A DNA stretch of 64,000 bases. Origin: Gammaproteobacteria bacterium. Lineage in GTDB: Bacteria; Pseudomonadota; Gammaproteobacteria; Eutrophobiales; Eutrophobiaceae. The translations under genes were made by a program, and so were the position numbers. The stretch is taken from contig CBDEUD010000003.1 of assembly GCA_965243115.1 (NCBI GenBank), positions 2,474,200-2,538,199 of the forward strand, read 5' to 3'. The notes under the pieces were generated by a model. The model saw nothing but the letters and a program-made list of their open reading frames with translations, had not been told where the DNA came from and ran no database searches. The stretch's first letter is position 1. Each line of letters begins with the position of its first letter. Shown piece after piece: positions 7,081 through 50,558 of the stretch.

Positions 7081-7087
7081 ATCACAC

Positions 7088-7984: not shown

Positions 7985-7992
7985 TGTACTTC

Positions 7993-9507: not shown

Positions 9508-9654
9508 ATTCAAACTCCTGACAGGGTTAAGCCTCCGCACATCCCGCATTACACCCGGCCGTCTACCGTCGAGCCGGCCAGGACCCCGAAATGCGTTCTG
9601 TAATGTGCGTGTGTTCTAACAACAGTTCTCTTGCTATAACCGGATAATTGGAGT

Positions 9655-9747
9655 CGGGATATTTGGGGTCAGAGTAAAAATACACCCAAGTTGGCGGGTG
9701 TTGCCGTGCAATTTACCAGGTATTTTTACTCTGACCCCAAATATCCC
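9655..9747. repeat. REP-like palindromic element, family 2: arms GGGATATTTGGGGTCAGAGTAAAAATAC with a roughly 37-bp spacer
   Basis: Near-perfect inverted arms. Second copy at 19937-20023. Located in the divergent rpsB/map promoter region. Confidence 0.8.
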
Positions 9748-9832
9748 TCAAATATCCGGTTCTTGCCATAACAGCAGGCGCTTTATAACATAGAAGCACT
9801 GGAGCAACAAACATTATTTCTGCGTTTTTATA

Positions 9833-22194: not shown

Positions 22195-22293
22195 AAGTTT
22201 CTCCTGTGGATGCAGTATCAGAGACAGCCTGTCAAGATCATATCACGCCGGAGTTGTGGATGACCGGCCGGGAGGATTTGTTGAGTGTATAAA

Positions 22294-24627
22294 TCATAAT
22301 TTTTTCCTGTCGACAGCCATTAACAGCGGAGGCAGCAAGAAAAAATCGGCCAGCAGGGCGAACAGGATCGTGCCTGTCACCATCAGGCCGAGCGACCAGC
22401 TGACCTCGAATCCGGATAACGCGAATACCAGGAAACCGGCAACCAGGACCAGGGTAGTGGTCCACAGTGCCCGACCGACGGTACGAAAAGTGTACAGCAC
22501 GGCTTCCGGCGCAGGGTGCCCGGCGCGCCGGGCTTTCAGGTATTTGCTCAGGAAATGAGTGGTATCGTCCACGATGATGCCGAACGCGATCGCGGTCATC
22601 ACGGACCCGGCCAGGCCCACCTGGCCGACCAGGTAGCCCCACAGACCAAAACTCATGGCCGCGGGCACAAAATTGGGCACCAGGCTGATTACACCCAGGC
22701 GCACGCTTTTGAAGACCAGTATAAAAATCAGTGAAATCAGGCTCATCGCTATAACAGTGGCGCGTAACATGCTGTTGATGTTGCGTTGGGACAGGTGGGC
22801 AAAGGTGATACTGACGCCGGTTGCCGCGGTGACCATGCCGGGGGTGTTTGCGCGCAGCCAGTCCTGCGCGCGCGCATCGAGTTCGCGCAACTGTTGAGAG
22901 GAAGTGTGGCCGTCGACCACGGCGGTCATGCGGGTGGCGGACTTGGCAACGTCGATACGGTTGTTGAGGTCACTGCCGAACGGCAGCGAGAATTCATAGA
23001 GCAACAGGTATTGCGCGGCGAGTTCCGCGTTGTCAGGCAGCCGGTAAAAGGCCGGGTCGTCTCCATGCATGTTCCTGTTCAGACGTTTCATGATGTCCGG
23101 GAAGGCCTGTACATGAAACACCTCGGGTTGCTCCCGGAACCATGCGGCAAAGGCATCGACGTCGCGCAGGTAGCCGGGTTCCGTGATGCCGCCTTCAGCT
23201 CCCGCCTCAAGCGAGTATTCCAGCGTTTCCATACCGGTCAGGTTTTCGAGCACGAAGTCCGTATCACGCCTGAACTGGTAACGCTCGTCAAAATACTGCG
23301 TCCAGTTATCGGTCAATTCATTGCGGGTGATGCCGGCGATCAGGACAACCGTCAGGAGGGTAAAGGACCAGAGCAGGATGGTACTGCGGGCAGTGACAAA
23401 CGCACCCAAGCGATCGAAGAATCCGGGCTGGTCAGCCGGGACCGGGCGAGCGCGCAGCGGCAGGACCGACAGCAGCGCCGGCAAAAGAGTCATGGAGTAT
23501 ATGAATGCGCACAGTACTCCGAACGCCACCAGATTGCCCAGCACATGGAACGGCGGTGAATCAGAGGAGTTCAAGGTGAGGAACCCGCCGGCAGTCGTGG
23601 CCGAGGTAAGAAACACCGGCCAGGCATTGCTGCGCAACGATTCGATAATTGCCTTATTTTTATCCAGGCCCCGGGCCACGCCTGCCAGCGCGGCCGTGAC
23701 GATGTGGATGGAATCGGCCACTGCAATCGTCATGATGATGAGCGGCACGCCCGCATTGACCGGGTTGAACACGATGCCAATCCAGCCGGCGAACCCCATG
23801 GTCGTGTTGACGGTGAACATGACCACGAGAATGGAGACCAGGGTACCGGTTACGGAACGCAGCAACAGGGCAGTTGCGACCAGTATGATGAGGAACACTA
23901 CCGGAGTCAGTTTCTCCATGTCGTCCTTGGTGGCGTCCGCGAAAGCGCGGTTCAGGACGACATCACCGGTGAGATAATAGGCCAGGTCCGGACGGCTTGT
24001 GCGCGCCTCATCCAGCAGCGCGTTGAGATGGTCGGTTATCTCAACCACTGCAGCGTCCGGGTTTTCCGGCAGGGAGAAGGTTATCGCCATGCCGGCCACA
24101 CGGCCGTCGCGGGCGACCAGGCGTCCGGCAATTTCGGTCGCGTTCAGCGCGATCTCTTCTACCCTCTGCAAGTCGGCATCGCTCAGGGACTGTGCGTCAT
24201 CGACCAGCGGTTCAACTACCAGGTCATCGCCGAATGCCTCGCTGTGGTTGTAGTTGGTCAATGAATCGACCCGGGTGGAATAAGGCGCAAGCCATGCGGC
24301 TTCGGTCAACTCCTCAACCGCTCCCAGGGTTTCCCGGGTAAACACCGAGCCCTGCCCGGGGCTGATCGCGATCAGCGCGGTATTGGATTCGGTGTACGTG
24401 GCTTCCAGGGCATCGAACGCGGCCAGTTGCGGGTTTCCTTCGTCAAACAGGCTGCGGTAGTCATTGGTGACGCCGATGAAGGGAACGCCCCCGGTCATGG
24501 CCAGCATGATCAGCGCTGCAAACGTAATAACCAGCCAGCGGCGGCCCAGGATGATATCGATGTAGCGGTCCAGCAGCAAGGGTATCTTCGTATCAGCCAT
24601 CATGCACAAATTCGGGGACAGATGCAC
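22294..24627 (-). CDS. MMPL/RND-superfamily membrane transporter (HpnN-like lipid exporter type)
   Basis: 777 aa with two 6-TM bundles separated by periplasmic loops, an RND/MMPL signature. GTG at 24627, or ATG ATG at 24603/24600. Confidence 0.75.
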   Translation of the reverse strand: MHLSPNLCMMADTKIPLLLDRYIDIILGRRWLVITFAALIMLAMTGGVPFIGVTNDYRSLFDEGNPQLAAFDALEATYTESNTALIAISPGQGSVFTRETLGAVEELTEAAWLAPYSTRVDSLTNYNHSEAFGDDLVVEPLVDDAQSLSDADLQRVEEIALNATEIAGRLVARDGRVAGMAITFSLPENPDAAVVEITDHLNALLDEARTSRPDLAYYLTGDVVLNRAFADATKDDMEKLTPVVFLIILVATALLLRSVTGTLVSILVVMFTVNTTMGFAGWIGIVFNPVNAGVPLIIMTIAVADSIHIVTAALAGVARGLDKNKAIIESLRSNAWPVFLTSATTAGGFLTLNSSDSPPFHVLGNLVAFGVLCAFIYSMTLLPALLSVLPLRARPVPADQPGFFDRLGAFVTARSTILLWSFTLLTVVLIAGITRNELTDNWTQYFDERYQFRRDTDFVLENLTGMETLEYSLEAGAEGGITEPGYLRDVDAFAAWFREQPEVFHVQAFPDIMKRLNRNMHGDDPAFYRLPDNAELAAQYLLLYEFSLPFGSDLNNRIDVAKSATRMTAVVDGHTSSQQLRELDARAQDWLRANTPGMVTAATGVSITFAHLSQRNINSMLRATVIAMSLISLIFILVFKSVRLGVISLVPNFVPAAMSFGLWGYLVGQVGLAGSVMTAIAFGIIVDDTTHFLSKYLKARRAGHPAPEAVLYTFRTVGRALWTTTLVLVAGFLVFALSGFEVSWSLGLMVTGTILFALLADFFLLPPLLMAVDRKKL

Positions 24628-24651
24628 ATCTGTCCCCGTTATTCACCATTG

Positions 24652-25818
24652 TCACCATTTTTTCGATAATTCCGAATGGGCGCTATCCGGAAGTTTGTAA
24701 CTGATGCCCTGCTTTTCATAATTGGAAATCTGGGTCATCAACTCGAAAGCATCCGGTATGTTCCCTTTGAAAAGTCTATTGTAAAGGGCTTTCCCCCGCT
24801 GCTCCAGGGCAAAGAAGAACAGGGAGCCCCAGGTATTCAGTCTGGGGTATTGAAGCTGGTCAGCGAGTTCATTCCCGATCAGCGCACGCGACAAACGGTA
24901 CACCCTGCGCACCAGCTTCTCGGAATCCGGGCCTTCCATGTTCACCAGCGTCGGCGCGGCGTTGATCAGGGTATTGGCCATGGCGATCGACTCCATGGGC
25001 GGCGGCGGTTCGCACATCAAGCCGATATTGAACAGGTGATTTGCCTGCTCTTCGGTGTGGGCAACCAGCACGTCGGGTATGCCCATCAGGTAACCTTGAT
25101 AACGCCAGATATGCATGAAACCATCCCGCTCTTCTGCGCTGATCTTCAGCAACAGCAAACGCCGGATATAGTGTAACACCCGCGCGGAGAATACCGTATT
25201 GGCCAGGCCCAGGTGCGCGGCGCTGATGGGCACCCCCCAGGCGTCGGTGTCCCAATCCGGCTGGCTGCTTATCAGCCGCCGGATTTGCGCATGCACCAGG
25301 CGCAGACGCACCGTCAGCTTCCAGCCCTCACCCTGGCGTTCGAGACCGCCGGGCAGGAACAGCTCCACCTGGTGCCGGTTGTTCTGCTTCAGCCTGCGCA
25401 CTCCCTGGTTTCCGTCGAACAGGCGACCCGTGTACAGGAACGATTTGGCGATGCCGCTGCTGAACCCTTCAATGAGGCCGGCGCCGACCAGCGATGCGGT
25501 AAACACATAAGGGAAACGGTAGAAGAGCCTTGAACCGTGCAAGCTTGCTTCCGGGTCGAACCAGTCCGGCGCAGTGTCCAGCCGCGCGAAAAACGCCCTG
25601 AGCGACTCCGGCGCGTCGCGCATTACAGTCTCGTTCTGCTCCATGGCGGCCTTTATATAGCCGGCTGATTCATCCTGACTCAAGGAGGCCATATCTTCGA
25701 CTACCGCATCAGCGTCGGGATCGCCCACAAACAGGTGAGAAACGTAAGTGGCCGCTACCTCAGGATCACGCAGCCGGGCTTTTTCATAACCTTCAACAAA
25801 ATCCGAGGGTATTTGCAT
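24652..25818 (-). CDS. DUF2236 (MpaB/rubber-oxygenase-like) family protein, putative oxygenase
   Basis: Family-level resemblance only (HxxR-rich helical protein of about 390 aa). Low confidence in function. Confidence 0.45.
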   Translation of the reverse strand: MQIPSDFVEGYEKARLRDPEVAATYVSHLFVGDPDADAVVEDMASLSQDESAGYIKAAMEQNETVMRDAPESLRAFFARLDTAPDWFDPEASLHGSRLFYRFPYVFTASLVGAGLIEGFSSGIAKSFLYTGRLFDGNQGVRRLKQNNRHQVELFLPGGLERQGEGWKLTVRLRLVHAQIRRLISSQPDWDTDAWGVPISAAHLGLANTVFSARVLHYIRRLLLLKISAEERDGFMHIWRYQGYLMGIPDVLVAHTEEQANHLFNIGLMCEPPPPMESIAMANTLINAAPTLVNMEGPDSEKLVRRVYRLSRALIGNELADQLQYPRLNTWGSLFFFALEQRGKALYNRLFKGNIPDAFELMTQISNYEKQGISYKLPDSAHSELSKKW

Positions 25819-37333: not shown

Positions 37334-37410
37334 CGGGGTGTAGCTCAGCCTGGTAGAGCACTGCCTTCGGGAGGCAGGGGCCGGAGGTTCAAATCCTCTC
37401 ACCCCGACCA
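37334..37410 (+). tRNA. tRNA-Pro (anticodon CGG)
   Basis: Cloverleaf folded by hand: 7-bp acceptor CGGGGUG/CACCCCG, D-arm GCUC/GAGC, anticodon stem CUGCC/GGCAG with loop UUCGGGA, T-arm GGAGG-UUCAAAU-CCUCU, discriminator A and encoded CCA. Strong similarity to E. coli tRNA-Pro. Confidence 0.85.
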
Positions 37411-37480: not shown

Positions 37481-38020
37481 CTATGACGAATCGGCCACGA
37501 GCTGCTGTTCAACGACAGTCATCCGCTCACGAATAGCCGCCTGGCCCTCCTGCAGACCGTTAAACTGCTGCGTCAGGTCGCTGCGGACTTCGTTGGTCTG
37601 CTGCGTCAGGTCGCTGCGGACTTCGTTGATCTGCTGTGTCAGGTCGCTGCGGACTTCGTTGATCTGCTGTGTCAGGTCGCTGCGGACTTCGTTGATCTGC
37701 TGTGTCAGGTCGCTACGGACTTCGTTGATCTGCTGTGTCAGGTCGCTGCGGACCTGGTTGATCTGCTTTATCAGGTCGCTGCGGAGTTCACGGATCTCAC
37801 CACGGATTTCGCGCATCTCACCACGAACTTCGCTGAGCTGTTGAGTCAGGTCGCTACGGACCCCGCTGATTTGCTGGGAAAGGAAAGTGAGGTAAGCAAA
37901 CATCATGGTAACCACGATGGCCGCGCCCCACTTCAGTACGCGCACTTCCCCGGACAGACGCCCCAACTCACGTGCGCCCTCGAGGTCCTGCACTGTCATA
38001 ACCGTGTTTTCCGTATTCAT
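37481..38020 (-). CDS. Membrane-anchored protein with about 10 tandem 11-aa repeats (SDLTQQINEVR; 33-bp minisatellite), paralog A1
   Basis: The N-terminus MNTENTVMTVQDLEGARELGRLSGEVRVLKWGAAIVVTMMFAYLTFLSQQ is identical to the paralog at 39309-39773. One TM helix, then 11-residue repeats, and a conserved C-terminus ...QFNGLQEGQAAIRERMTVVEQ. The ORF track extends it to 38086. Confidence 0.65.
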   Translation of the reverse strand: MNTENTVMTVQDLEGARELGRLSGEVRVLKWGAAIVVTMMFAYLTFLSQQISGVRSDLTQQLSEVRGEMREIRGEIRELRSDLIKQINQVRSDLTQQINEVRSDLTQQINEVRSDLTQQINEVRSDLTQQINEVRSDLTQQTNEVRSDLTQQFNGLQEGQAAIRERMTVVEQQLVADSS

Positions 38021-38143
38021 AATACTTCTCCTTCTGACGTTTCCATCACAGGTCGTATGGCCAGGACAGGGTATGATGCCCGACAACGCCTGTCAAGGGG
38101 CCCTGAGGGGTCAGACCAGTTCAGATCGCCACGAATTTAGAGG

Positions 38144-39256
38144 TCAGGACCACATCTCACCAGCTTTCTTGCGGGAATCAAGCTCATCCAAAGCCAGTTC
38201 GGCGCGCATGGCCTCGGTTGCCGTCGCCTTGGCATCCTCCAGCGGGATGCCCGTCGCATCGGCAACGCGCGGGTAGCAGTTAAATGCTGCAATGACCGCC
38301 GCGGCATCAACCATCGCCGCCTCACCCATTGCTCTTATGATTTGTTGCCGGACTGTTGCCGTGCGCGCTGCATCATCTGCGCAGACAGCCTCGACAAAGT
38401 CATTGAGAAGCTCTCCCCGGGGCAGACCGCTATCACCCGAGCCTTTACCGATTGCATCCTCAAGCGCGTACTTGTCGCCGGTATGTTTGCCGCTCAAACT
38501 GAGCCGCATTGCATGGCTGGCAGTTCAATAAAAACAGTCGAGATAGGCCGAGGTGCGAGTCGCAATGAATTCCATCTGCGCCCGTGAGATTGCTCGCTCG
38601 ACGCCCTCGAGTTCAACTCTTAACGGATTACCCAGGTAAAGCTGGTTCAACAGCGGCCAAAACCGGTTTGCTTCGTCGGGTACCAGGGTCAGCGCGCGTC
38701 GAATATAGGCGGCGGGGCCTGTCTCATAAAAATCACCGAGTTCGTGGCCGGCATCTTCCGGAGCAACCGTCGGCGCCCATCCCGGCCCTGTCTTGGCACC
38801 GGCCGGCCGCCTGCGCGGCGGTATGCCTTGCTCTCCTGTTGCGGACAACGCCAAAGGCGGGAGCCCGATACCGCGCATGAAGGTGTCCGCACCAGTGACA
38901 ATGGTAACGAGGCTCAGCAGCTCGATGAATTCGTCTTCAGCGATACCGGCAGCGATGGTTGAATCGTACCAGCTCTCAGTGATGCGGCCGGAGTCGGTAA
39001 CTATCCGGTGCACCGCCTCGACCCAGGCATCGGGGAGCGCGCCGAGGTGCTCATGATCACCCTGTACGGTATAGGGCGACAAGGCTTCCTTGCGCCGTTT
39101 GCAGAGTTCGCATTGCCATGCGTTGCGGGCTTCGTTTGCAATTGCAAGACGTTGTTCGCCGCTCAGCCAGGCGCCGGTCTGAGCCACTTCCGACCAGGCC
39201 TGGGTCAAGGCCGATTTGAGATTATCCCGTACGGTGAGTGGTGATGTATCTATCAT
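38144..39256 (-). CDS. Candidate selenoprotein of the AhpD/carboxymuconolactone-decarboxylase (CMD) family; in-frame TGA at 38525-38527 read as Sec (two ORF-track ORFs joined)
   Basis: ORFs 38525-39256 and 38144-38509 are in the same frame, separated only by one TGA. Readthrough gives ...AYLDCFY-U-TASHAM..., a C-x-x-U-x-x-x-H motif matching the AhpD C-x-x-C-x-x-x-H active site. A hairpin lies 16 nt downstream of the UGA. Confidence 0.6.
38488..38508 (-). ncRNA. SECIS-like hairpin (mRNA: UGCGGCUCA-GUU-UGAGCGGCA)
   Basis: 9-bp stem with one G.G mismatch and an apical loop containing GU. Starts 17 nt after the in-frame UGA, within the typical bacterial SECIS distance window. Confidence 0.45.
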
Positions 39257-39308: not shown

Positions 39309-39773
39309 CTATGACGAATCGGCCACGAGCCGTTGTTCAACGACAGTCATCCGCTCACGAATAGCCGCCTGGCCCTCCTGCAGACCGTTAAATTGGTGCG
39401 TCAGGTCGCTACGGACTTCGTTGGTCTGTTGCGTCAGGTCGCTACGGACTTCGTTGATCTGCTGTGTCAGGTCGCTACGGACTTGGTCAATTCGCTGTGT
39501 CAGGTCGCTATGGACTTGGTCGATTCGCTGTGTCAGGTCGCTATGGACTTGGTCGATTCGCTGTGTCAGGTCGCTATGGACTTGGTCGATCTGCTGTGTC
39601 AGGTCGCTACGGACCCCGCTGATTTGCTGGGAAAGGAAAGTGAGGTACGCAAACATCATGGTAACCACGATGGCCGCGCCCCACTTGAGTACGCGCACTT
39701 CCCCGGACAGACGCCCCAACTCACGTGCGCCTTCGAGGTCCTGCACTGTCATAACCGTGTTTTCCGTATTCAC
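39309..39773 (-). CDS. Membrane-anchored protein with about 8 tandem 11-aa repeats (SDLTQ[QR]IDQV[HR]), paralog A2
   Basis: Same N- and C-termini as A1, with a different repeat number and sequence. Its upstream about 80 bp is near-identical to the A1 upstream region. Confidence 0.65.
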   Translation of the reverse strand: MNTENTVMTVQDLEGARELGRLSGEVRVLKWGAAIVVTMMFAYLTFLSQQISGVRSDLTQQIDQVHSDLTQRIDQVHSDLTQRIDQVHSDLTQRIDQVRSDLTQQINEVRSDLTQQTNEVRSDLTHQFNGLQEGQAAIRERMTVVEQRLVADSS

Positions 39774-40041: not shown

Positions 40042-41097
40042 ATGAATATCGCCGAAGCACTCCCGCCGTTTCCGGAAGGGTGGTATTTCATCGCCGACCG
40101 AAAAACCGTTCTCAAGAAAAAACTCACCCGGAAAACCTGGATGGGTGAGGAGATCATCGCCTGGTGTGACGCGGAAGGCCGGATCTGCGTGGCCGATGCG
40201 GTATGCCCGCACATGGGTTCCAGCCTGGGTCCGGAGGTGGGGGCCCGGGTACGCGACGGTTGCCTGGTTTGCCCCTTTCACGGATTTGAGTACGATGCAA
40301 GCGGCCAGTGCGTTGCCACCCCGAATGCCCCCGCGCCCAAATCAGCCAGGTTGAAAACGTACGAAACAAGAGAAATACTCGGTCTGGTGTTTGCCTGGTG
40401 GGGGAGCGGCGGACGGCTGCCGCAATGGCAGCTGCCGGAACAGCCGCACACCGGCCCGGACTGGAGCGATCTGGCGCTGGGCTTCTTCAGCTTCCCCGGG
40501 CATCCCCAGGAAACTTCTGAAAACTCCGTGGATCTGGCGCACCTGCGTTATATACACGGCTACGACAACGTACACCCGGTCGGCGATGTGTCGGTTAACG
40601 GCGCCCACCTTGTGTCCCGTTTCGACTTCAGGCGCAACCGGAAATTTGCCGGGTTGATTGACAACATCTACGATGTATCAGCCGTTACACATCTTTACGG
40701 CGTAGGCTACTCCTATGTTGAAATTCACGAGAAAACCATCGGTATGGATGCCAGATTATGGGTACTCTCAACACCCATAGACGGTACACATATTGAACTT
40801 GTGCTGGTGAGCCAGGTCAGGGAACTGCGCAAACCGAAACGGCCCATCGTGGGTTTGCGCTTTATCCCGGTGCATCTGCGCCACAGGTTACTGAACCGCA
40901 TTATACTGCGGGCGCAGATACAGGATGTCCGGCAGGACGTGATTATCTGGGGGAAAAAACAATATCGGCCACGCCCCCGCCTGAGTCAGGCGGATGGCGA
41001 GGTAATGACATACCGGCACTATTGCCGCCAGTTCTATCCGGAAACTTATCCGGAGACGGGCCGTGATGAGTTCCAGCTGAGTTCCGTTTCAGGTTAG
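40042..41097 (+). CDS. Rieske [2Fe-2S] non-heme-iron oxygenase (KshA/Neverland/SdmA-like)
   Basis: Rieske motif CPHMG...(17)...CPFHG and mononuclear-iron motif DLAHLRYIH (DxxHxxxxH). AT-rich promoter-like region upstream (39900-40020). Confidence 0.8.
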   Translation: MNIAEALPPFPEGWYFIADRKTVLKKKLTRKTWMGEEIIAWCDAEGRICVADAVCPHMGSSLGPEVGARVRDGCLVCPFHGFEYDASGQCVATPNAPAPKSARLKTYETREILGLVFAWWGSGGRLPQWQLPEQPHTGPDWSDLALGFFSFPGHPQETSENSVDLAHLRYIHGYDNVHPVGDVSVNGAHLVSRFDFRRNRKFAGLIDNIYDVSAVTHLYGVGYSYVEIHEKTIGMDARLWVLSTPIDGTHIELVLVSQVRELRKPKRPIVGLRFIPVHLRHRLLNRIILRAQIQDVRQDVIIWGKKQYRPRPRLSQADGEVMTYRHYCRQFYPETYPETGRDEFQLSSVSG

Positions 41098-41194
41098 TCC
41101 GCGCAACGCATACGTTATATTACATTAACACGAGTTTTTTGGGACAGTATTGGAGTCTCATATATATCTGAACCCCTGCATGGGAGAATACGGC

Positions 41195-42229
41195 ATGAAA
41201 CTAGGCAAACTACCCAATGCTCTGAAACGTGCGTACCGGGGGTCAGATGTCACCCGTCGAATAAAACATTTCGATGGCTGGAGCGGTCGAGCGGCGCAGG
41301 ATGGCGTCGGAGCGGACAGCTACGACCACAGCGAAACGGTGAAAGAATACTATGAGCTTTGCAACGAGTTCATGGTGTTCGGTTGGAATGAATCCCTGCA
41401 TTTTGCTCCCTTGACGCCCAATGAGACTCTGGAGGACTCCATCATCCGGCATCAGCGGTTGATGATCGCCAACCTGGAGCTGCAACAGGGCATGACAGTT
41501 GTTGATATCGGCTGTGGGATAGGCGGCCCGATGCGCCGCATCGTGCGTGAGTCCGGTGTCCGGGTTGTCGGGGTCAACAACAATGAGGTCCAGATGGAAA
41601 AGGCAAAAATGCTGAATATCGAGGCCGGGGTCGACCACATGGTTGAGTACGTTGCGTGCAGCTTTATGGACATGAGTGTCATCGGAGACAACACTTTCGA
41701 CGCAGGTTATGCAATCGAGTCGACGTGCCATGCGCCGGACAAGGCAGGCGCATTCGCGGAGATATTCCGCGTGCTGAAACCCGGGGCCCTGTTCTGGGGT
41801 CAGGAAATGTGCATGACGGACAAGTTCAATCCGAATGACGCAAGCCACCGGGCCATCCAGCAGGAACTTATGCACTATATTGCGCTGAATGAAATTGCGA
41901 CGCCGGGGGAAGTGAACCAAACGCTTGAAGCGGCGGGCTTCAGCGTCCTCAAAGGGATGGACCTGGGCGTCAGTGAGGATCAATCCACACCCTGGTACCA
42001 ACCCATGGAGACTCAGCATGGAACCCTGGACAAAGCCGTGCGTAGAATTCCATGGGGCCGCAGGGCGCTCATCGTGGCATTGAAGCTGGCCGAAACGGTC
42101 GGACTGTTCCCGAAGGGATCCACGGAAGTAGTCCGGCTCATGGACCGCACGGCACAGGCTTATGTCGCGGGCGGCAGAGCAGCCATATTCACGCCGTTGT
42201 ACTGTTTCCTGGCTCGCAAACCCCTTTAG
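41195..42229 (+). CDS. Sterol 24-C-methyltransferase (ERG6/SMT family)
   Basis: Collinear with yeast ERG6 across the protein: YYELCNEFMVFGWNESLHF (SMT motif I, YEYGWGxSFHF), VVDIGCGIGGP (SAM motif), YAIESTCHAP, VLKPGALF and the C-terminal GGRAAIFTPLYCFLARKP. SD gggagaa before the ATG at 41195. Confidence 0.85.
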   Translation: MKLGKLPNALKRAYRGSDVTRRIKHFDGWSGRAAQDGVGADSYDHSETVKEYYELCNEFMVFGWNESLHFAPLTPNETLEDSIIRHQRLMIANLELQQGMTVVDIGCGIGGPMRRIVRESGVRVVGVNNNEVQMEKAKMLNIEAGVDHMVEYVACSFMDMSVIGDNTFDAGYAIESTCHAPDKAGAFAEIFRVLKPGALFWGQEMCMTDKFNPNDASHRAIQQELMHYIALNEIATPGEVNQTLEAAGFSVLKGMDLGVSEDQSTPWYQPMETQHGTLDKAVRRIPWGRRALIVALKLAETVGLFPKGSTEVVRLMDRTAQAYVAGGRAAIFTPLYCFLARKPL

Positions 42230-42501
42230 ACCCCGATAGGGCCGGTTGGCCCTATACATGACGCCCGGTAGTTTCGGCTGCTATCTCCCTGACTGCACGT
42301 TGCGTAGAGGGGGATGCCGGATAACTGACCCGACGCCATGAGTCCAAAGCACTTGGCTTGATTGAAATTCATTCCATCGAGTGGTATAATGCGCGCGGTC
42401 AACACCTGTTTTTTTATGGCTTCCAATACCCTTGAGATTGAGTTCGGCGCAGGCAAAGGGGCGTTTTCCGATTCCCGGTTTATTAAGTCTAACGCACTGA
42501 A

Positions 42502-44496
42502 ATGATAAGTTTAGTTGACGAACTGGTACTGTTCCTCATCAACGAAGAAAGCGGTTACTTTCACCAGGTTTCAGGCTGGAAACTGCACTGCGCCCTCGCC
42601 GGCGCCGTGCTTGCGGACCTGTCAATGATCTCACGTATCGACACAGACCTGGAGTCTCTTTTTGTTGTCGACTCCACGGAAACAGGCGACCCCGTCCTGG
42701 ATTCCGCCTTGAGGAAAATCGGGGAAGAACCAACGCAACGAAGTACCCAATTCTGGATTGAACGGCTGAGCCCGCGCGCGGAATCGATCATCGATACGAC
42801 TCTGGAACGACTGGCGGAGCGTGGAATAGTGACGGAACATCAAGGCGGGTTTTGGACTATCTCGCGTACTACCTGGCAGACCCATTCCTATTCTTCTGAC
42901 GATGGAGATGAGACGGAGTTCGTCAAGACGCGACTTAGTAAGGTCATTTTCGATAACGAAATCCCTGACCCGAGAGATATTTTCCTCATCTCTCTCATCC
43001 ACACGTGCGATGTCTTTCGCTTTGTCTTCACCCTCGACGAAGCGGCGGAGGAACGTATTGCGGCCATTTCCAGCATGGACGTTCTGGGCCGCGCCATCGC
43101 GGAAGCCATCAGCCAGACCCTTGCAGGTCCGGCGCTGCAACGTGCGATTAAGTCCCGACCGATTCCGACCGTCCCGATACGCGACCTGCTGTTCAGCCCG
43201 CATATCCGCACCGGCAACATATCTGCGCTGTTTGCCGGGCTTGCTGAAAAACACGGGCCCGTGTTCAAGATTAAAGCGCCGTTTATGAAGGAAGACATGG
43301 TAATTCTCGCCGGCCTCGAGGCAAACAAATGGACGCATCGCTCCGGCCGCAACTACCTGAGAGCCAAGGACTATCTTGAAGGTTTCGTGAAGGTCTACGG
43401 CGCCGGGCGGTTGCTGCCCGCGATGGACGGCGCCGACCATTTCCGTTTGCGCAAAACCTATGGTTCGATGAATTCGCGCAAAAAACTTGAAAACCGCCTG
43501 GATGAACTATACGGGCCCGCCCGCGGCTACCTGGCGGGTTGGCAGGTCGGCGACGTCCTGACGGCGGTGGCGACTTTCCCCGAATTGATCAACTCGCAAT
43601 TCTCACCGATCAACATCGGCATCAACACCCAGGACTGTATCAAGGAAGTGATCGAATTCAAGAAGCGGGCGCTCGCCATTCACCTGTTGCGGATGCTGCC
43701 GGAATTCATGCTGTATACCCCGGGCATGAAACGCAGGAAGAAGCACTTTGCCAGGCTGGTCGAGCGGGTGCAGGCTGTGCATACACCAGCCCAGCGGGCG
43801 GGCTGTCCCCGGAATCTTGCGGACGATTTACTGAGCCTGCACGCAAGCGACCCGCAGTTTTTGCCGGAAACGGATTTGCCTTTTGCTTTTGTGTCATCGC
43901 TGCTTGCCGCCTTTTACCTCGGCAGCGCGTTGAGCTTCGCGGTGTACGCCATGGTGTCGCAGCCGGCCCTGTATCGCAGGATACAGGCGGAAGCCGCAAC
44001 GTTCTTTGCCAACGGCGAACCGGTAGGCGAGGAAGTCCAGGAATTCAATTTAGATGTCACCCACCGCCTCATCATGGAGTGCCAGCGTATGTACCCGGTC
44101 GTGCCGATGCAGGTCAGGAACGTAATGAATGCCTTCACGCTCGAAGGATATTCACCTCCTGTAGGAACGCGGCTTTTCATTGCCCAGACAGCCACGCATT
44201 ATATGGATGACGTCTTCCCGGACCCCTTTTCGTTCGATATCGACCGCTACCTCCCGGAACGCAAGGAACAAGTCGGCCACGGCTACGCGCCGTACGGGCT
44301 GGGCACCCACACTTGCCTCGGTCAGAACTGGGTAGAGTTGCAACTGGCGCTTAACCTGCTGCTGATTGCGCACTATTTCAACCTTGAGTTGTCCCCCGAA
44401 AACTACCAGCTGCGTTTCAACCCGATCCCGTCGCTGGCGCCGAGGAAGAGTCTCAAGTTCGTCGTCGCAGAAAAGCGGCGCGAACTGCCTGCCTGA
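42502..44496 (+). CDS. Fusion protein: N-terminal GPP34/GOLPH3-like domain (about 220 aa) + C-terminal cytochrome P450
   Basis: N-terminus MISLVDELVLFLINEESGYF...WKLHCALAGAVLADL matches the GPP34 family pattern (ELLLLALDDE...ALAGAVLAEL). C-terminus has P450 EXXR (ECQR), PERF-like PDPFSFDIDRY and heme ligand YGLGTHTCLG. It is a single 664-aa ORF. Confidence 0.75.
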   Translation: MISLVDELVLFLINEESGYFHQVSGWKLHCALAGAVLADLSMISRIDTDLESLFVVDSTETGDPVLDSALRKIGEEPTQRSTQFWIERLSPRAESIIDTTLERLAERGIVTEHQGGFWTISRTTWQTHSYSSDDGDETEFVKTRLSKVIFDNEIPDPRDIFLISLIHTCDVFRFVFTLDEAAEERIAAISSMDVLGRAIAEAISQTLAGPALQRAIKSRPIPTVPIRDLLFSPHIRTGNISALFAGLAEKHGPVFKIKAPFMKEDMVILAGLEANKWTHRSGRNYLRAKDYLEGFVKVYGAGRLLPAMDGADHFRLRKTYGSMNSRKKLENRLDELYGPARGYLAGWQVGDVLTAVATFPELINSQFSPINIGINTQDCIKEVIEFKKRALAIHLLRMLPEFMLYTPGMKRRKKHFARLVERVQAVHTPAQRAGCPRNLADDLLSLHASDPQFLPETDLPFAFVSSLLAAFYLGSALSFAVYAMVSQPALYRRIQAEAATFFANGEPVGEEVQEFNLDVTHRLIMECQRMYPVVPMQVRNVMNAFTLEGYSPPVGTRLFIAQTATHYMDDVFPDPFSFDIDRYLPERKEQVGHGYAPYGLGTHTCLGQNWVELQLALNLLLIAHYFNLELSPENYQLRFNPIPSLAPRKSLKFVVAEKRRELPA

Positions 44497-44580: not shown

Positions 44581-47500
44581 TCAGGTCCCGCGCAGCCGGT
44601 TGACGCGCAGGTAGATTGCCAACAGGGCAGGCACACAGATCATGAGAATCGCTGTCGTAATCAGGATGCCGACCCCAAGCGTGGCCGCGAAGGGGGCCAG
44701 GAACTGGGCCTGGATGGCCCGTTCGAGAATGAGAGGCGTGAAGCCGAGAAAGGTGGTCACGGAGGTCAGCATGATGGGTCGAAAACGTTCCTTTGCGCCA
44801 TCGATAATCGCGCTCCGTGGGGGAGCGCCTTCGCTGAGTCGCTGATCGACGAAATCTATCATTACCAGGGAGTCGTTCACGACGACTCCGCTCAAGCCGA
44901 AGAAGCCGATCATGGACGTCGCGCTCACGGGCACACCCAGCACCCAATGCCCCAGGATCGTGCCGATGATGCCAAACGGAATGATGGCCATGACAATGAT
45001 CGGCTTGCTGTAGGAGCGCAGGGGAATGGCCAGCATGGCAAACATAAACAGCAACACGAGTATAAAACTGCGGAACAGCGCGCCCAGCGATTCAATCTGC
45101 TGTTGCTGTTCACCCCCGTATATGTAGGTCAGGCCGGGATTGGCGGCTGACAGGTCAGCGAGGATGGAATCCGCCAGGATGCTGTTTGCTTCATTAGCGG
45201 AAATCACAGCCGGGTCCACTTCAGCGATCACGGTGACGACGCGCTGGCCGTCCCTGCGCCGAATTTCCGGAGGGGAAAAACCCGTGTTCAAGCGCGCGAC
45301 CTGGGTAAGCGGCACTTCCGCCCCGCCCGGGGTGCGGATCAGGTATGCCTCAACGTCGGTCATGGCGTCGCGTTCATCCTTGGGCAGGCGGACATAGACC
45401 CGGACTTCTTCCCGGTCTCGCTGCACCCGCAGGGCTTCGGCGCCGAAGAATGCCGCGCGTGCTTGCACGGCCAGGTCTTCCAGCGTGAGTCCGAGTGTGC
45501 GCGCCTCCTCCCTCAACTCCAGTTGTATCTCCCTGACACCCGGCGCGTGGTCGGAGCGTATGTCATACACGCCCTCCAGTCCGCGCAATTCGCTGACCAC
45601 CGAACCTGCTATTTGGACGAGACGGTCCGGGTCCGGATGAGAAAGCACCGCCTCAACGGGACTGCCGAAGTCGACGACATCTCCGCTGATGGCAATGCTG
45701 CGCACGTAGGGCAGGATACCCACCTCCTCCCTCCAGGCTTGCGCGACATCTACCGTGGAGATATCTCGTTGCTGCGCGCTCACGAGCTTGAATTCGATGC
45801 CGGCAACGTTGGCTTCAGGGTTCAGCGTGAGTTTCGGTAACAATCCCCCACCCTCAACGCGAGGTTCCCGGCCAACGGTGACGACGACTCCCGAGAGCAG
45901 GGGGGGCGCTCCATCAGCCTGGGTCCCAGAGAACCGGGCAACGACGCGTCGCCCCGCCTTCTCCAGTTCCCTGGCCACCTCGTGCGTCCTGCTCGCGGTA
46001 GTCCCATCCGGCATCTCAAGGCTCGCGTTCACGAAGTCGCCTTCGATCACGTCGGCGTAAGTAGTCATCACGATACCTGCCGGCAACAGGGAGATGCTCA
46101 GGACGAGCATGCCGACCGCGACCGCCATCACCACTGCCGGCTGTTGTGTTGCAAATCGGAGCGATCGGTCCAGAGGTCCTTCCACGAACCTGTTCAATAC
46201 GCGATCAACGTAGCGCTGGGTGCGCCAGAAAAACCGCTCAACCGGACTGGTGGGCGTCCAGTCCGGACCGTGCAGGTGAGAGAGGTGGTTGGGAAGTATG
46301 AAGAAAGCATCGACGAGGGAGATCAACAGCATGGCGATGACGACTATCGGCAGCGCCTTCCATATTTCACCGATGCCCCCGGGCACGAAGAGTACGGGCG
46401 TAAACGCGGCGATGGACGTGAGCACGGCAAACGTCAGGGGCTTCTTGATCCGCCGAACGCCGCGGATTGCGGCCGCGACTCCCGGTATGCCCTGCTGCCG
46501 CTCGTGATGGATGTGCTCGGCCACGACGATGGCGTCGTCGACAATGATACCGATGGCAAGGACGAACACGAACAGGGAGACGTTGTTGAGTGAGAGGTCA
46601 AATGCCAGCATGACGGCCAGGGCGCCGATCCCCGCAGTGGCGAGTCCGACCGCGACCCATAACGCCAGCCGTATTTCGAGGAACAGCGCCAGGGCGATAA
46701 GGACGAGCATGAGCCCCAACGAGCCGTTCTTAAGCAACATGTCGACCCGCTCCGAATAAGTCTGGGTATCGTCGTTCCAGATAGAGATTTCCACGCCTTC
46801 GGGCAGGGATGGCGCAATGACGTTTGCCACGTGTTCGTGCACCGCCGCGGCGACAGCCATCACCGGTTCACCTTCCGCCCGGAAGACCTCGACAAAGGCT
46901 GCCGGCTTACCGTCGTAGCGCACAATCAGGTCATTGTCGCGAAAGCCATCGTGCACTTCTGCAATATCGCTGAGGCGCACCACGGTCCCGTCATTGCGAC
47001 TGAGAACGACAAGATTCTCAAAGTCCTGCTGATCATATCGCCGGCCGAGGGTGCGCACGCGCACTTCGGTATCCCGCGTCTTGATACTGCCGGCCGACAG
47101 GTCGAGGGAACCGCGACGCACCGCGTCGGCGACATCATCCAGTGTGAGTCCCAGGGCGCGCAGACGGCGCAGCGGTACTTCAATCGATATCTCGTAGTCC
47201 GACGTGCCGCTCGTCTCGACGTTCGATACTGCGGGCAGCGCAGCAAGATCATCCTCAATCTGGTAAGCCAGTTCCTTCAGCGATCGCCTTGGGATATCGC
47301 CATACACGACAAGACGGATGATGCTCGTGCGGGTGGACAATTTGGTAATCTCGGGACGCTCGGCCGCGCCGGGAAAGGACTGGATACGGCTGACTGCTGA
47401 CTCTACCTGGTCCAATGCCTGGTCAATATCCGTACCCGACCTCATTTCAACGCTGATGGATGCTATCCCGGGGGCAGCCACCGAGCGAATCGATTTAACG

Positions 47501-47760
47501 TCGTCCAGGGCTTCGACCTGTTCCTCAATCTTGACGACAATCGAATCTTCCACCTCCTCCGGGCTGGCGCCCGGATAGGCCATCGACACTTCAATCATGT
47601 TGAAGGGGATAGGCGGCCAGGCCTCCCGCTCAAGGCCGGTCAGCGATACCAGCCCCGCGGCGATGATGGCCAACATCAACAGGTTGGCGGCAACGCCATT
47701 GCCGGCCATGTAGGCGATCGGTCCCGGCCGTTCGCCGCCGATAAGATCCCTGGAATTCAC
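44581..47760 (-). CDS. Efflux RND transporter permease subunit
   Basis: 1059 aa, 12 TM with two large periplasmic loops, GIIVDDAIVVAEHI motif. ATGA overlap with the upstream adaptor gene. Confidence 0.9.
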   Translation of the reverse strand: MNSRDLIGGERPGPIAYMAGNGVAANLLMLAIIAAGLVSLTGLEREAWPPIPFNMIEVSMAYPGASPEEVEDSIVVKIEEQVEALDDVKSIRSVAAPGIASISVEMRSGTDIDQALDQVESAVSRIQSFPGAAERPEITKLSTRTSIIRLVVYGDIPRRSLKELAYQIEDDLAALPAVSNVETSGTSDYEISIEVPLRRLRALGLTLDDVADAVRRGSLDLSAGSIKTRDTEVRVRTLGRRYDQQDFENLVVLSRNDGTVVRLSDIAEVHDGFRDNDLIVRYDGKPAAFVEVFRAEGEPVMAVAAAVHEHVANVIAPSLPEGVEISIWNDDTQTYSERVDMLLKNGSLGLMLVLIALALFLEIRLALWVAVGLATAGIGALAVMLAFDLSLNNVSLFVFVLAIGIIVDDAIVVAEHIHHERQQGIPGVAAAIRGVRRIKKPLTFAVLTSIAAFTPVLFVPGGIGEIWKALPIVVIAMLLISLVDAFFILPNHLSHLHGPDWTPTSPVERFFWRTQRYVDRVLNRFVEGPLDRSLRFATQQPAVVMAVAVGMLVLSISLLPAGIVMTTYADVIEGDFVNASLEMPDGTTASRTHEVARELEKAGRRVVARFSGTQADGAPPLLSGVVVTVGREPRVEGGGLLPKLTLNPEANVAGIEFKLVSAQQRDISTVDVAQAWREEVGILPYVRSIAISGDVVDFGSPVEAVLSHPDPDRLVQIAGSVVSELRGLEGVYDIRSDHAPGVREIQLELREEARTLGLTLEDLAVQARAAFFGAEALRVQRDREEVRVYVRLPKDERDAMTDVEAYLIRTPGGAEVPLTQVARLNTGFSPPEIRRRDGQRVVTVIAEVDPAVISANEANSILADSILADLSAANPGLTYIYGGEQQQQIESLGALFRSFILVLLFMFAMLAIPLRSYSKPIIVMAIIPFGIIGTILGHWVLGVPVSATSMIGFFGLSGVVVNDSLVMIDFVDQRLSEGAPPRSAIIDGAKERFRPIMLTSVTTFLGFTPLILERAIQAQFLAPFAATLGVGILITTAILMICVPALLAIYLRVNRLRGT

Positions 47761-48971
47761 TTTACCGGGCCAGCCTTGGTGCTGACCAGCATGTCTTCCA
47801 CGGCAAACTGGATACCGCCGGTGATTACCGCCTGCCCGCTTTCCAGGCCGCCGGTCACGAATACCTCGTCATCGGCGCGCTGCAGCACCTGTACCGGGAC
47901 GATACCTACCCTGCCGCCGGGGTTCACCACCCACAGTTCATTGCCGGGCTGCAATGCGGCGCGCGGCGCCCGGAAGTAATTCTCCGGCGCAGCTCCCGTA
48001 ATCTCCACCTCCACGAACTCACCCAGCAACAGCGGCGGACCGGCGCCGGCCGCGGCGGAAACGCCAACCGGGATGCCGGCGCTGAACGGATCCGGCACGC
48101 GTACCACCACGTCTATGGTACGCGTCAGTTCATCTACGGAGGTCTCGCCCCGGTCAACATAGCCTTTCCAGGCATATTTCCCTGCGCCGTAACGGACCGC
48201 CACCAGCGCCTGCACCCGCTGCTCCCCGTCGCCCGCCTGAAGTTCCCACAAGCCGGGGATCAGGGCCGCATCGCTGTCGGACAGGGGCACGACCACTTCC
48301 ACGGCAGCGGATGCAAACAGCCGGCCGACGGTCTGGCCCGCCATCACGATCTGCCCGGCGTCCACGGATTCCTCGCGCACATGGCCGTCGAAGGGCGCAG
48401 CCACCCGGGTCCTGGACAGCGCCAGCCTGGCGTCGGCCAGCAGGGCTTCGGCGCGTTTCAGTTCGGCGCGCGCGGCTTCCAGTTGCGGTTCTCTCAGGGT
48501 AAGGGGACTGACACCGGCCTGACCGGCCCCATCCCCCTGCCGGCCGGAGTAACGTTCGTACTCGGCGCGGGCGATGGCCGCCTGTTCCTGTTCCTCCAGC
48601 AAGGCCACCTTGCGCGCCGCGAGATTGGCCTCCGCTTCCTGTACCCGGTACAGGTAGTCCGCTTCTTCGATACGGAACAGCGTCTGGCCCGCGTGTACCC
48701 GTCCTCCGCTCTGGAACCCGGCGTCCACCCAGACGATCCTGCCGCCGACCTGCGGCGCGACATCGACCTCGGCGCCCGCCCTGACCGTGCCGGCGCCATA
48801 TACCGGGATGGCGCCTGAACCTGCCAGCACCGTTCCGGTCTGCGCATACGGGATTTGCGGTGGCGGTTCGACGCGCTCCGGTTCCGGCGCACGTGAAACC
48901 AGGAAAGACGCCAAAGCCACGGAACCGGCGATAATGACAACGGCGATGAGGAAACTGGATATGCGGGACAT
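47757..48971 (-). CDS. Efflux RND transporter periplasmic adaptor (membrane fusion protein)
   Basis: N-terminal TM anchor, coiled-coil hairpin, and lipoyl/beta-barrel domains. Position between the OMF and the RND permease. Confidence 0.85.
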   Translation of the reverse strand: MSRISSFLIAVVIIAGSVALASFLVSRAPEPERVEPPPQIPYAQTGTVLAGSGAIPVYGAGTVRAGAEVDVAPQVGGRIVWVDAGFQSGGRVHAGQTLFRIEEADYLYRVQEAEANLAARKVALLEEQEQAAIARAEYERYSGRQGDGAGQAGVSPLTLREPQLEAARAELKRAEALLADARLALSRTRVAAPFDGHVREESVDAGQIVMAGQTVGRLFASAAVEVVVPLSDSDAALIPGLWELQAGDGEQRVQALVAVRYGAGKYAWKGYVDRGETSVDELTRTIDVVVRVPDPFSAGIPVGVSAAAGAGPPLLLGEFVEVEITGAAPENYFRAPRAALQPGNELWVVNPGGRVGIVPVQVLQRADDEVFVTGGLESGQAVITGGIQFAVEDMLVSTKAGPVK

Positions 48972-48977
48972 GTGGGT

Positions 48978-50558
48978 CTACTCCGTGGTGTTGGCAAGCA
49001 TACGCTCAGGTTCTGTATGGGTTGCGTTACTCTGCTTGGCAGCACCCCGGTCCCGGGCGGTCCACGCGCCTCCCAGGGCGCGGTGCAACGCCAGACGGGC
49101 GTAACCCAGGTCGCGCTCCGCCGCCGCCAGGCCGGATTGCGCACCCAGCAGGTTTTGCGCCGCGGTCAGGAAAGCTTCATATTCGCCCACGCCGGAAACA
49201 TAGCGCTGCTCCTGCAACGCGTTTTCAGCCTCGGCCTCTTCTGCCAGCGAGGCCAGCAGGGAATGGCGGCGGTGGCTGGCCTCCAGCCGCGCCAGGGCGG
49301 CCTCAACCTCCTTGACCGCAGTAACGACGCTGCGCCCGTAGGCGGCGGCGGCCTCGTCCAGCCTGGCCTCGGCGAGTTCGACATTGCTGCGCAACCGTGC
49401 TCCCTGGAATACCGGACCCAGCAGGTTGAAGCTCAGGTTGCGGAACCATTGGTCCGGGTCGAACCATTCACCGCCTTCCGTGCTCTGCAATCCGATGGAA
49501 CCGTACAGGGACAGGCTCGGAAACATATCGGCGCGGCGGGCGCCGACCGTGTAGCGCGCCGCTTGCATCCGCTTTCTTGCCGCGCTGACATCCGGACGCT
49601 GGACCAGCAGGTCGGCCGGAATACCGGCCGGTACCGGTTCCAAGGCAGCGGCAGGAGTCAGGGTATCGGGCAGCATGTCCTTGAGATCCGAACGGTAACC
49701 ACCCAGGAGCACCCAGAGTCTGCCCTGCGCATCCGCCAGCAGCGCTTCAATCTGCGGCAGCTCGGCTTGCGCGTTACGCAGGTTCTGGCGGGCAGAGTAG
49801 AGAGCGAGCGTGTCGATCCGGCCCCGGTCGTAACGAAATTCCGCCAGCGACTCGCGTTGCTTGAAAATTTCCACGTTTTCGCCTGCCAGCTTCTGCTGCC
49901 GGCGCAAATCGACGATTTCCAGGTAGGTCCGCACGGTTTCCGCCAGCACCCCCATGCGGGCAGTCAGGAAATCCGCTTCGGAAGCCGACCGCTCCGCCCC
50001 CGCGGCAAGCGCATCGTTGCGGTTGCGGCCCCAGAAATCGAGTTCGTAGGAAAAGTCCACTCCCAGGGTGTAGGTAGTCAGGTCAAGCCGGTCCGGCAGT
50101 TCGATGCCGAAGTCGCTGTACACGTCGGGACCCAGCCCCACCTCATCCAGTTGCGCGGCGATGCCGGCGTTGGTCGGTACATCAATGTCGGTGATGTCAG
50201 CCGAAGGCTGCAGCAAGGGAAACGCCGGGGCCTTGACGATGCGTTCCCGCGCCCTGGCCTGGTCGACACGGGCAACCGCTTCGGCCAGGTCGAAGTTCGA
50301 TTCCAGCGCCGTCTCGATCACACGGTCGAGAACCGGATCGGCGAACGACTTCCACCACTCCAGCGGCTCGTATGCCCCGCCGGTTTCACTTCCGGCGTAC
50401 GCGTCAGGCAGGTCCGCAAACGTTTCGTCAGCTTCGGGAGCCAGGTCGATGAGGTTCGTTTTCAGGGCGCAGGCGGAAAAGAGGCAGCAGGCGACGACAG
50501 CAAACAGCATCACCGGAACCCGCCTGGATAAGGTCGACCTGACTGACACCTGTCTCAT
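48978..50558 (-). CDS. Efflux outer-membrane factor lipoprotein (NodT/OprM family)
   Basis: Lipobox LFSAC, two TolC-like repeats, 526 aa. First gene of an OMF-MFP-RND operon (CzcCBA-like order). Confidence 0.85.
   Translation of the reverse strand: MRQVSVRSTLSRRVPVMLFAVVACCLFSACALKTNLIDLAPEADETFADLPDAYAGSETGGAYEPLEWWKSFADPVLDRVIETALESNFDLAEAVARVDQARARERIVKAPAFPLLQPSADITDIDVPTNAGIAAQLDEVGLGPDVYSDFGIELPDRLDLTTYTLGVDFSYELDFWGRNRNDALAAGAERSASEADFLTARMGVLAETVRTYLEIVDLRRQQKLAGENVEIFKQRESLAEFRYDRGRIDTLALYSARQNLRNAQAELPQIEALLADAQGRLWVLLGGYRSDLKDMLPDTLTPAAALEPVPAGIPADLLVQRPDVSAARKRMQAARYTVGARRADMFPSLSLYGSIGLQSTEGGEWFDPDQWFRNLSFNLLGPVFQGARLRSNVELAEARLDEAAAAYGRSVVTAVKEVEAALARLEASHRRHSLLASLAEEAEAENALQEQRYVSGVGEYEAFLTAAQNLLGAQSGLAAAERDLGYARLALHRALGGAWTARDRGAAKQSNATHTEPERMLANTTE

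Follow-up and report, generated by a model that had tools for sequence, protein, structure and literature searches.

A GPP34-P450 fusion, a Rieske oxygenase and a divergent sterol methyltransferase as the probable core of a sterol tailoring and export module in sponge-associated bacteria

Bacterial symbionts of sponges carry functional sterol methyltransferases (SMTs) and horizontally transferred sterol gene clusters (Kelly et al., 2022, PMC9531527; Brown et al., 2023, PMC10070321). These published clusters list only ERG1/7/11/24/6 together with SdmA/B, without KshA-type Rieske oxygenases, GPP34-P450 proteins, flavoproteins or transporters. Another symbiont protein, GPP34_L, combines a GOLPH3-like GPP34 domain with a cytochrome P450; it has been reported from sponge symbionts only, across 16 phyla, is present in ~65% of the gammaproteobacterial sponge-symbiont genomes surveyed and is expressed in situ in Aplysina aerophoba (Ferreira et al., 2025, PMC11706023). 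The same study proposed that GPP34 proteins bind phosphatidylinositol 4-phosphate (PI4P) and that the symbiont thereby evades phagosomes. Here we describe a locus in which a GPP34-P450 fusion gene follows genes for a Rieske oxygenase and an SMT-family enzyme, in a stretch of a gammaproteobacterial genome (assembly GCA_965243115.1, contig CBDEUD010000003.1, positions 2,474,200 to 2,538,199). The full 64-kb stretch is referred to as the window, and all positions are counted within it.

We consider it probable (roughly 0.6) that this cassette supplies the core enzymes of a “sterol tailoring and export” module that has spread horizontally among sponge-associated bacteria. The initial annotation had read the three genes as a sterol-tailoring cassette without redox partners of its own, perhaps acting on exogenous sterols; the comparative context supports that view, whereas the labels of individual genes and the size of the unit had to be corrected. 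The component classes are each known; the module, as a tailoring-and-export addition to bacterial sterol gene clusters, is undescribed. An open-access full-text search found no paper linking GPP34_L with SMTs or sterol metabolism: the GPP34_L study (PMC11706023) contains neither “sterol” nor “methyltransferase,” and the published SMT papers mention neither Rieske proteins nor P450s. The window resembles the published symbiont clusters in its SMT family and sponge-symbiont source, but differs from them in having tailoring genes without the core pathway.

The three open reading frames (ORFs) are consecutive on the plus strand and comprise the Rieske gene (40042-41097, 351 aa), the SMT gene (41150-42229, 359 aa, opening at TTG 41150) and the fusion gene (42502-44496, 664 aa). 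Gap lengths of 52 and 272 nt, as given in the initial annotation, agree exactly with these coordinates. The SMT nevertheless probably starts at ATG 41195 (41195-42229, 344 aa), since its homologues are 344 aa long with an invariant M1; a GGAGA Shine-Dalgarno-like site lies 7 nt upstream of this codon, and the first gap would then be 97 nt. Each of the three proteins has more than 1700 homologues and is 55-73% identical to counterparts in other phyla, thus the genes are real and under selection, and the catalytic motifs are intact in all three. The 272-nt gap holds a candidate σ-70-like promoter on the plus strand (42362-42390; TTGAAA-17-TATAAT with extended TG, 11 of 12 matches), which is a consensus match only. 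As no intrinsic terminators were found, the promoter match could suggest that the cassette is transcribed as two transcripts.

To place the cassette among other genomes, we scanned one GTDB genome per species with a profile built from the fusion-protein alignment. This returned at least 594 loci, the best 80 of which were analysed; they cover at least ten phyla and include Chloroflexota, Latescibacterota, Nitrospirales, Gammaproteobacteria, Alphaproteobacteria, Binatia, Opitutia, Gemmatimonadota, Thermodesulfobacteriota, and Rhodothermaceae (individual loci carry L numbers below). Companion genes were counted within 10 kb of the fusion gene. A KshA-type Rieske gene was present in 63 of the 80 loci and an SMT of the window type in 55, with both together in 49. 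An amine-oxidase-like flavoprotein accompanied the fusion in 46 loci, a sterol-sensing-domain (SSD) transporter of the resistance-nodulation-division (RND)/MMPL type in 48, and an efflux pump in 38. Label-free clustering of the ORFs of these loci recovered the same families and none other that was comparably frequent. Thus, the unit is larger than the three genes originally proposed, adding a tripartite RND pump and, mostly, the flavoprotein and the SSD transporter in relatives. The flavoprotein (PF01593, ~452 aa; for example, 15450-16808 of L001) is the most conserved member of the module, 73-83% identical across phyla, and matches no NCBIfam equivalog. Overall, identities between phyla are 55-84% for the module enzymes and mostly 61-76% for the pump subunits, indicative of horizontal transfer.

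The reciprocal approach, a scan of 241 million metagenome records with the cassette SMT, found 86 relatives. Among the 45 SMT-anchored metagenome loci of at least 12 kb, the fusion gene was present in 27, where it mostly adjoins the SMT gene directly, and the Rieske gene in 18. Every contig series that could be identified among these relatives came from a sponge metagenome (Petrosia, Sarcotragus, and Aplysina; names from Brown’s supplement).

The genomic setting of some relatives supports the sterol-tailoring reading. A complete bacterial sterol pathway is abutted by six of the 80 loci (three in Nitrospirales and one each in Opitutales, Binatia, and Thermodesulfobacteriota) and, in addition to these six, by the module in the sponge Nitrospira MAG (metagenome-assembled genome) GCA_009840285.1. 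Sterol pathway genes adjoin the module in L003 and in the metagenome loci L086 and L088. The abutting pathway consists of a squalene epoxidase-oxidosqualene cyclase fusion, CYP51, ERG24, SdmA, SdmB, and a further SMT with ~41% identity to ERG6. In the Nitrospirales locus L056 the cassette lies on the same contig as a published sterol cluster. Embedding of homologous cassettes in carotenoid or aromatic pathways, which the initial annotation had named as an outcome that would refute it, was not observed; several adjoin sterol pathways instead.

The window itself holds the three core genes and the pump without a core sterol pathway, at least within 64 kb. A tblastn and motif scan, together with Pfam scans of ~45 ORFs, found no ferredoxin, ferredoxin reductase, oxidosqualene cyclase (OSC), squalene epoxidase, CYP51, SdmA/B or ERG24 in the window, in agreement with the earlier statements that electron-transfer partners and cyclase or epoxidase genes are absent here. 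No ferredoxin or reductase family recurs across the 80 loci either; the lack of a redox partner is therefore characteristic of the module as a whole, not special to the window.

The fusion gene is followed by a convergent tripartite RND pump of the AcrAB-TolC type, encoded by three contiguous genes on the minus strand: an inner-membrane permease (44581-47760; ACR_tran, 561 bits), a membrane-fusion (periplasmic adaptor) subunit (47757-48971; HlyD_3 and HlyD_D23, 44.7 bits) and an OEP/TolC-like outer-membrane channel (48978-50558; OEP, 147.5 bits). Homologues of the permease (68-71% identical) adjoin the fusion gene in Latescibacterota loci, as do those of the adaptor (66-70%) and of the channel (64-76%) in other phyla. 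Taken together, the pump homologues, mostly 61-76% identical, are found in Latescibacterota, Gemmatimonadota, Binatia, Opitutales, and Thermodesulfobacteriota. Because 18 of the 25 non-Chloroflexota loci have a homologous pump next to the fusion gene, the pump in the window is not a chance neighbour. Chloroflexota are taken to be monoderm. Within 10 kb of the fusion gene, their 55 loci have an MMPL/Patched SSD transporter (45), a DHA2 exporter of the major facilitator superfamily (MFS; 20) and an LppX/LprG-type lipoprotein (20). A transporter of any of these kinds is found in 67 of the 80 loci. In one chloroflexotal locus (L011, 13074-19274), an 827-aa MMPL/Patched-SSD transporter, a DHA2 MFS protein and an LppX/LprG-like lipoprotein are encoded between the SMT, Rieske, and flavoprotein genes. 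L002, from a relative with 4.9 Mb, has genes for an FkbM-type methyltransferase and for a protein weakly matching a fatty-acid hydroxylase (6925-8261) in the stretch that separates its RND pump from its sterol genes.

A probable accessory lipid-transport set is encoded on the minus strand 15 kb upstream of the cassette (20102-24627). It comprises an RND protein with MMPL, Sterol-sensing, and Patched SSD domains (22294-24627), a LolA-like carrier with a LolA_like domain (21373-22194) and a protein of 424 aa that matches DUF1302 weakly (20102-21376). All three have homologues (49-67% identical) immediately next to the cassette in an alphaproteobacterium and in a Binatia genome (loci L007 and L083) as well as on nine sponge-metagenome contigs, and the set is the diderm counterpart of the MMPL/LppX transporters of Chloroflexota. 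The arrangement recalls HpnN/BstA and the mycobacterial MMPL proteins with LppX/LprG, in that an SSD RND/MMPL protein is paired with a LolA/LppX-fold carrier near lipid-modifying enzymes. The SSD RND protein is HAE3/HpnN-like but scores far below the NCBIfam cut-offs of these families (HpnN, 83.6 versus 751.85 bits; BstA, 25 versus 1400 bits), so that membership in either was rejected and only the assignment to the sterol-sensing-domain/MMPL superfamily holds. An MpaB/Lcp-type isoprenoid oxygenase gene (24652-25818, minus strand) beside the SSD transporter completes a four-gene cluster (20102-25818), and MpaB homologues are also found near the cassette in L019 and L157.

The SMT-family protein has a Sterol_MT_C domain (60 bits) and class-I methyltransferase domains, is ~35% identical to yeast ERG6 and keeps all S-adenosylmethionine (SAM) motifs, including D125, G127, G129, G132, and P133 of the motif 125DxGxGxxGP133. 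The ERG6 numbering used here was checked against the motif positions in the paper. In functional SMTs the sterol-binding Region I carries the canonical motif Y81-E82-(Y/F)83 followed by 84GWGxxFHF91, and 25 residues, T78 and F89 among them, are shared by every SMT of demonstrated function (Brown and Welander, 2025, preprint). In the window protein this region reads FMVFGWNESLHF, with M81, V82, F83, N86, and L89, and 21 of the 25 residues are kept, the deviations being T78N, G86N, F89L, and L341M. Among 120 members of its clade, M81 and L89 occur in all and T78 in none, and we assign the protein to a divergent clade with a remodelled Region I. The clade includes one enzyme that has been assayed, the “Nitrospira coral reef” SMT “2 of 2” (IMG gene 2682229270), which is encoded on L056 (70,077 bp). 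It has S78 and L89 against the conserved T78 and F89 and therefore cannot be among the functional enzymes; we infer that it was inactive on desmosterol and 24-methylenecholesterol. The label “bona fide SMT” is thus too strong, given the altered Region I, the four deviations and the probable inactivity of this orthologue on two sterols.

The cassette SMT is of the ~35%-to-ERG6 type with M81/L89, whereas the published ~41-42% type includes the propylating enzyme. A propylating activity of the cassette enzyme is unlikely, as the propylating A. aerophoba enzyme is gene 11, of the other SMT type. At position 249 the window protein and 119 of the 120 clade members have Ile; position 248 is Gly in 108 of the 120, and the window protein has Tyr there. 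The A. aerophoba contig JGIcombinedJ30088_10000835 was not among the matches of the metagenome SMT scan, and its gene 9 is only presumptively typed, from its 35% identity to ERG6.

The third protein had been labelled a P450. The P450 domain stands (p450, 108.7 bits, residues 414-638), but the protein is a fusion whose N-terminal GPP34 domain (125 bits, residues 4-205) had been overlooked. With PF05719 at the N-terminus and PF00067 at the C-terminus of one polypeptide it has the architecture of GPP34_L, and both domains are present in all of the 120 best homologues listed. The likeness extends to length (~664-675 aa) and to the source of its close relatives, which belong to the sponge MAG series SB06xx, APA, COS, and RHO; the nearest named relatives are proteins of Gammaproteobacteria MAGs. 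The difference from the published account is that the fusion here belongs to a conserved set with an SMT, a Rieske protein, a flavoprotein, and lipid exporters, and that the PI4P-binding arginines are absent. In eukaryotic GOLPH3 the PI4P pocket is formed by W81, R90, R171, and R174 (Wood et al., 2009, PMC2806290). These map to W26, A33, E94, and I97 of the fusion (phmmer and hhalign agree, hhalign probability 95%, with moderate alignment confidence around R171/R174), the Trp alone being retained; within the fusion family, E94 and I97 hardly vary.

The P450 part, which can be aligned to solved P450s over roughly residues 230-664, retains the haem ligand Cys605, the ExxR pair (E526/R529) and an FDxDRY motif, all invariant in homologues. 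Its nearest solved relatives, in sequence as in structure, are bacterial CYP51 proteins (Methylococcus capsulatus; E 3e-20, 75.8 bits, TM 0.70, ~20% identity). Foldseek against the PDB did not separate the candidates, as BM3 and CYP51 scored alike. An identity as CYP51 was rejected in view of the ~20% identity and the I-helix, where AFYLGSA replaces the AGxxT(S)/AGQHTS signature and G474 occupies the Thr position; true CYP51 genes are separate in the de novo clusters.

The Rieske protein combines a Rieske domain (58.6 bits) with a KshA_C domain (75.9 bits). Its cluster ligands C55/H57/C77/H80 and the residues D164/H167/H172/D299, which we read as the mononuclear-iron site, are invariant in 24 homologues; the Cys2His2 and His2Asp ligands of KshA are thus in place. 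The closest solved structures are those of KshA (sequence E 1e-19; Foldseek TM 0.70-0.73, identity 21-23%, model pLDDT 76). The protein therefore shares with the KshA/KshB system its architecture, conserved metal ligands and best structural match, but differs in its 21-23% identity, in lacking a KshB-like reductase and catabolic neighbours, and in its biosynthetic and export companions. Orthology to KshA was rejected on these grounds, as neither a KshB-like reductase nor catabolic genes are present in the window or recurrent elsewhere. SdmA, likewise a Rieske oxygenase of bacterial sterol metabolism, was considered as another candidate identity. This did not hold: the score against NF052579 is 31.8 bits, from the Rieske domain only, with an equivalog cut-off of 600 bits, and the catalytic domain is KshA_C, unlike the VanA_C domain of the SdmA-like gene of L001. 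SdmA genes are separate and stand alongside the window-type Rieske gene in L001, L009, and L056, and there is no SdmB in the window. Annotations of distant Rieske relatives were uninformative. One relative, P0409 (645 aa, Acidimicrobiia, 11 members at 90% identity), is 38% identical to the window protein; it was considered as a GPP34-Rieske fusion, which was rejected as its N-terminal extension of ~290 aa matches no Pfam family.

How the components could work together can be outlined as follows. A sterol would reach the cytoplasmic face of the inner membrane, in this gammaproteobacterium probably from the host or neighbouring bacteria, as there is no cyclase within 64 kb. The GPP34 domain would dock the fused P450 to the membrane or to lipid, where the P450 and the KshA-fold Rieske protein would hydroxylate or desaturate the sterol with electrons from a generic cellular ferredoxin/reductase. 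The divergent SMT would then add a SAM-derived methyl group to an olefin, either of a sterol other than desmosterol or 24-methylenecholesterol or at a different position. Finally, the product would be expelled by the tripartite RND pump and/or passed to the envelope through the SSD RND protein and the LolA-like carrier. Tailoring of exogenous sterols in many lineages would fit the frequency of GPP34_L (~65%) compared with that of cyclase-containing clusters (only ~21% of Ircinia MAGs, as published).

Several observations weigh against this proposal. None of the module enzymes has a demonstrated substrate, the Rieske and P450 proteins are only ~20-23% identical to their steroid-acting relatives, and confidence in the structure models is only moderate (pLDDT 67 and 76). 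The fourth enzyme, the amine-oxidase-like flavoprotein, was not found in the 64-kb window, 74 of the 80 loci have no sterol-synthesis gene within 10 kb, and the SMT gene stands alone on some SMT-anchored loci of 20 kb. Furthermore, the L056 orthologue, the only tested member of the SMT clade, must have been inactive on desmosterol and 24-methylenecholesterol. Together with the altered Region I, this would point to another sterol nucleus, an oxygenase-modified substrate or a different methylation site as the target of the SMT.

Other explanations were weighed as well. The module often occurs where no sterol-synthesis genes lie nearby, and its enzymes are accompanied by pumps of the drug-resistance type (AcrB-like RND proteins in diderms, EmrB/DHA2 MFS proteins in Chloroflexota), as would be expected if the enzymes modified toxic steroids or terpenoids of the sponge and the pump removed them for self-protection. 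We regard such detoxification as unlikely, given that C-methylation by the SMT family is biosynthetic and not detoxifying, that the module adjoins de novo sterol pathways in several phyla, and that SSD transporters together with carriers of the LolA/LppX type point to directed trafficking of lipids more than to drug efflux. Manipulation of the host is a quite improbable alternative, in which the fusion protein, once released into sponge cells, would bind phagosomal PI4P through GPP34 and block digestion of the symbiont, with its neighbours being incidental. It would accord with the reported restriction of GPP34_L to sponge symbionts, across 16 phyla and with expression (PMC11706023), with the sponge metagenome origin of all cassette-SMT relatives of identifiable source, and with PI4P binding by eukaryotic GOLPH3 (PMC2806290). 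However, just one of the four pocket residues, the Trp, is kept while E94 and I97 are nearly invariant, the Pfam GPP34 match begins at residue 4 and leaves no room for a signal peptide, and the P450 requires haem and cytoplasmic electron donors. The tight linkage in many phyla to the SMT, the Rieske protein, the flavoprotein, and lipid transporters would also go unexplained.

The substrate could also be an isoprenoid other than a sterol, for example squalene, a hopanoid, a carotenoid or a terpenoid of the sponge that bears a terminal olefin, which is methylated by the SMT-like enzyme and oxidised. In Botryococcus, SMT-like enzymes methylate squalene and botryococcene. The remodelled Region I, the probable inactivity of the tested orthologue on two sterols and the MpaB/Lcp-type gene beside the SSD transporter are compatible with this idea, yet Sterol_MT_C and 21 of 25 SMT-conserved residues are kept, the module adjoins sterol clusters and not hopanoid or carotenoid ones, and the Rieske protein has a KshA-type catalytic domain while the P450 is closest to CYP51; we think a non-sterol substrate improbable. 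Bacterial steroid catabolism has reportedly been described in host environments, in one paper, and among solved proteins KshA is the one closest to the Rieske protein. A catabolic route like that of actinobacterial cholesterol degradation, with ring B opened by the KshA-like enzyme and the side chain attacked by the P450, nevertheless has no place for an SMT; KshB-like reductases and other catabolic-type families do not recur in the window or the 80 loci, and the module has its links with biosynthetic clusters and exporters. We consider this route very unlikely. The preferred reading, tailoring and export of sterols, admits a more specific version: the module, and not sponge or canonical symbiont SMTs, would make some of the unconventional side-chain-alkylated sterols of demosponges, for instance 26-methyl sterols such as aplysterol, from which the 26-methylstigmastane biomarker derives. 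Here the SMT would methylate a position other than C-24 on a sterol prepared by the Rieske protein, the P450 or the flavoprotein, the pumps would hand the product to the host, and GPP34_L would be an enzyme of a sterol pathway and not a PI4P effector. This extension is speculative and rather unlikely.

The remainder of the window is an ordinary chromosomal core (rpsB-tsf-pyrH-frr-uppS-cdsA-dxr-rseP, glnD, ileS-lspA-ispH, murJ, obg, rplU, and ispB), a gene content that fits the Gammaproteobacteria names of the nearest relatives. A tRNA-Pro (CGG) gene (37334-37410, plus strand) lies between ispB and the region of repeats, selenoprotein, and cassette. A recent island at this tRNA gene finds no support in composition, as the GC and GC3 of the cassette equal those of host genes; the same chromosomal site is occupied in the relatives L005 and L096. 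The latter (MKWU01006211.1, 1-12312) is a close relative of the window organism (IspB 94%, AhpD 87-91%, RND 87% identical) in which the cassette occupies this site in rearranged form, with an SMT only 72% identical and a GPP34-P450 paralogue only 42% identical. This suggests exchange of the cassette at a fixed chromosomal site.

Next to the cassette, and conserved there in L005 and L096, is a gene for an AhpD-related selenoprotein (38144-39256, minus strand), split by an in-frame TGA (38525-38527) in the context C-F-Y-TGA-T. Its halves match NF041238 (“AhpD_rel_CFYUT”) with 279 and 112.6 bits, and ORF callers make two genes of it. It is flanked by two paralogous genes for membrane-anchored coiled-coil proteins (37481-38086 and 39309-39773, both minus strand), each with about seven tandem 33-bp (11-aa) repeats; the paralogues form direct repeats, 90-93% identical over ~580 nt, and have a homologue in none of the related loci. 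Elsewhere in the window, ribosomal protein S2 (7993-9549, minus strand) carries a C-terminal extension of ~270 aa, an acidic stretch followed by numerous PAKT/AAKA-type repeats, which coincides with a strongly negative AT skew at 8001-10000, and a t44 RNA (9526-9631, minus strand) lies upstream of rpsB.

Three published threads meet in this module: horizontally transferred sterol clusters, symbiont SMTs that complicate the 24-isopropylcholestane biomarker, and the GPP34-P450 protein as the most widespread gene specific to sponge symbiosis. If our reading is correct, GPP34_L, so far only a marker of symbiosis, would gain a metabolic role that can be tested biochemically, and the Rieske protein, the P450, the flavoprotein, and the atypical SMT would be new candidates for the origin of unusual sponge sterols and sterane biomarkers. 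It would also suggest that many symbionts that are unable to make sterols still remodel those of their hosts.

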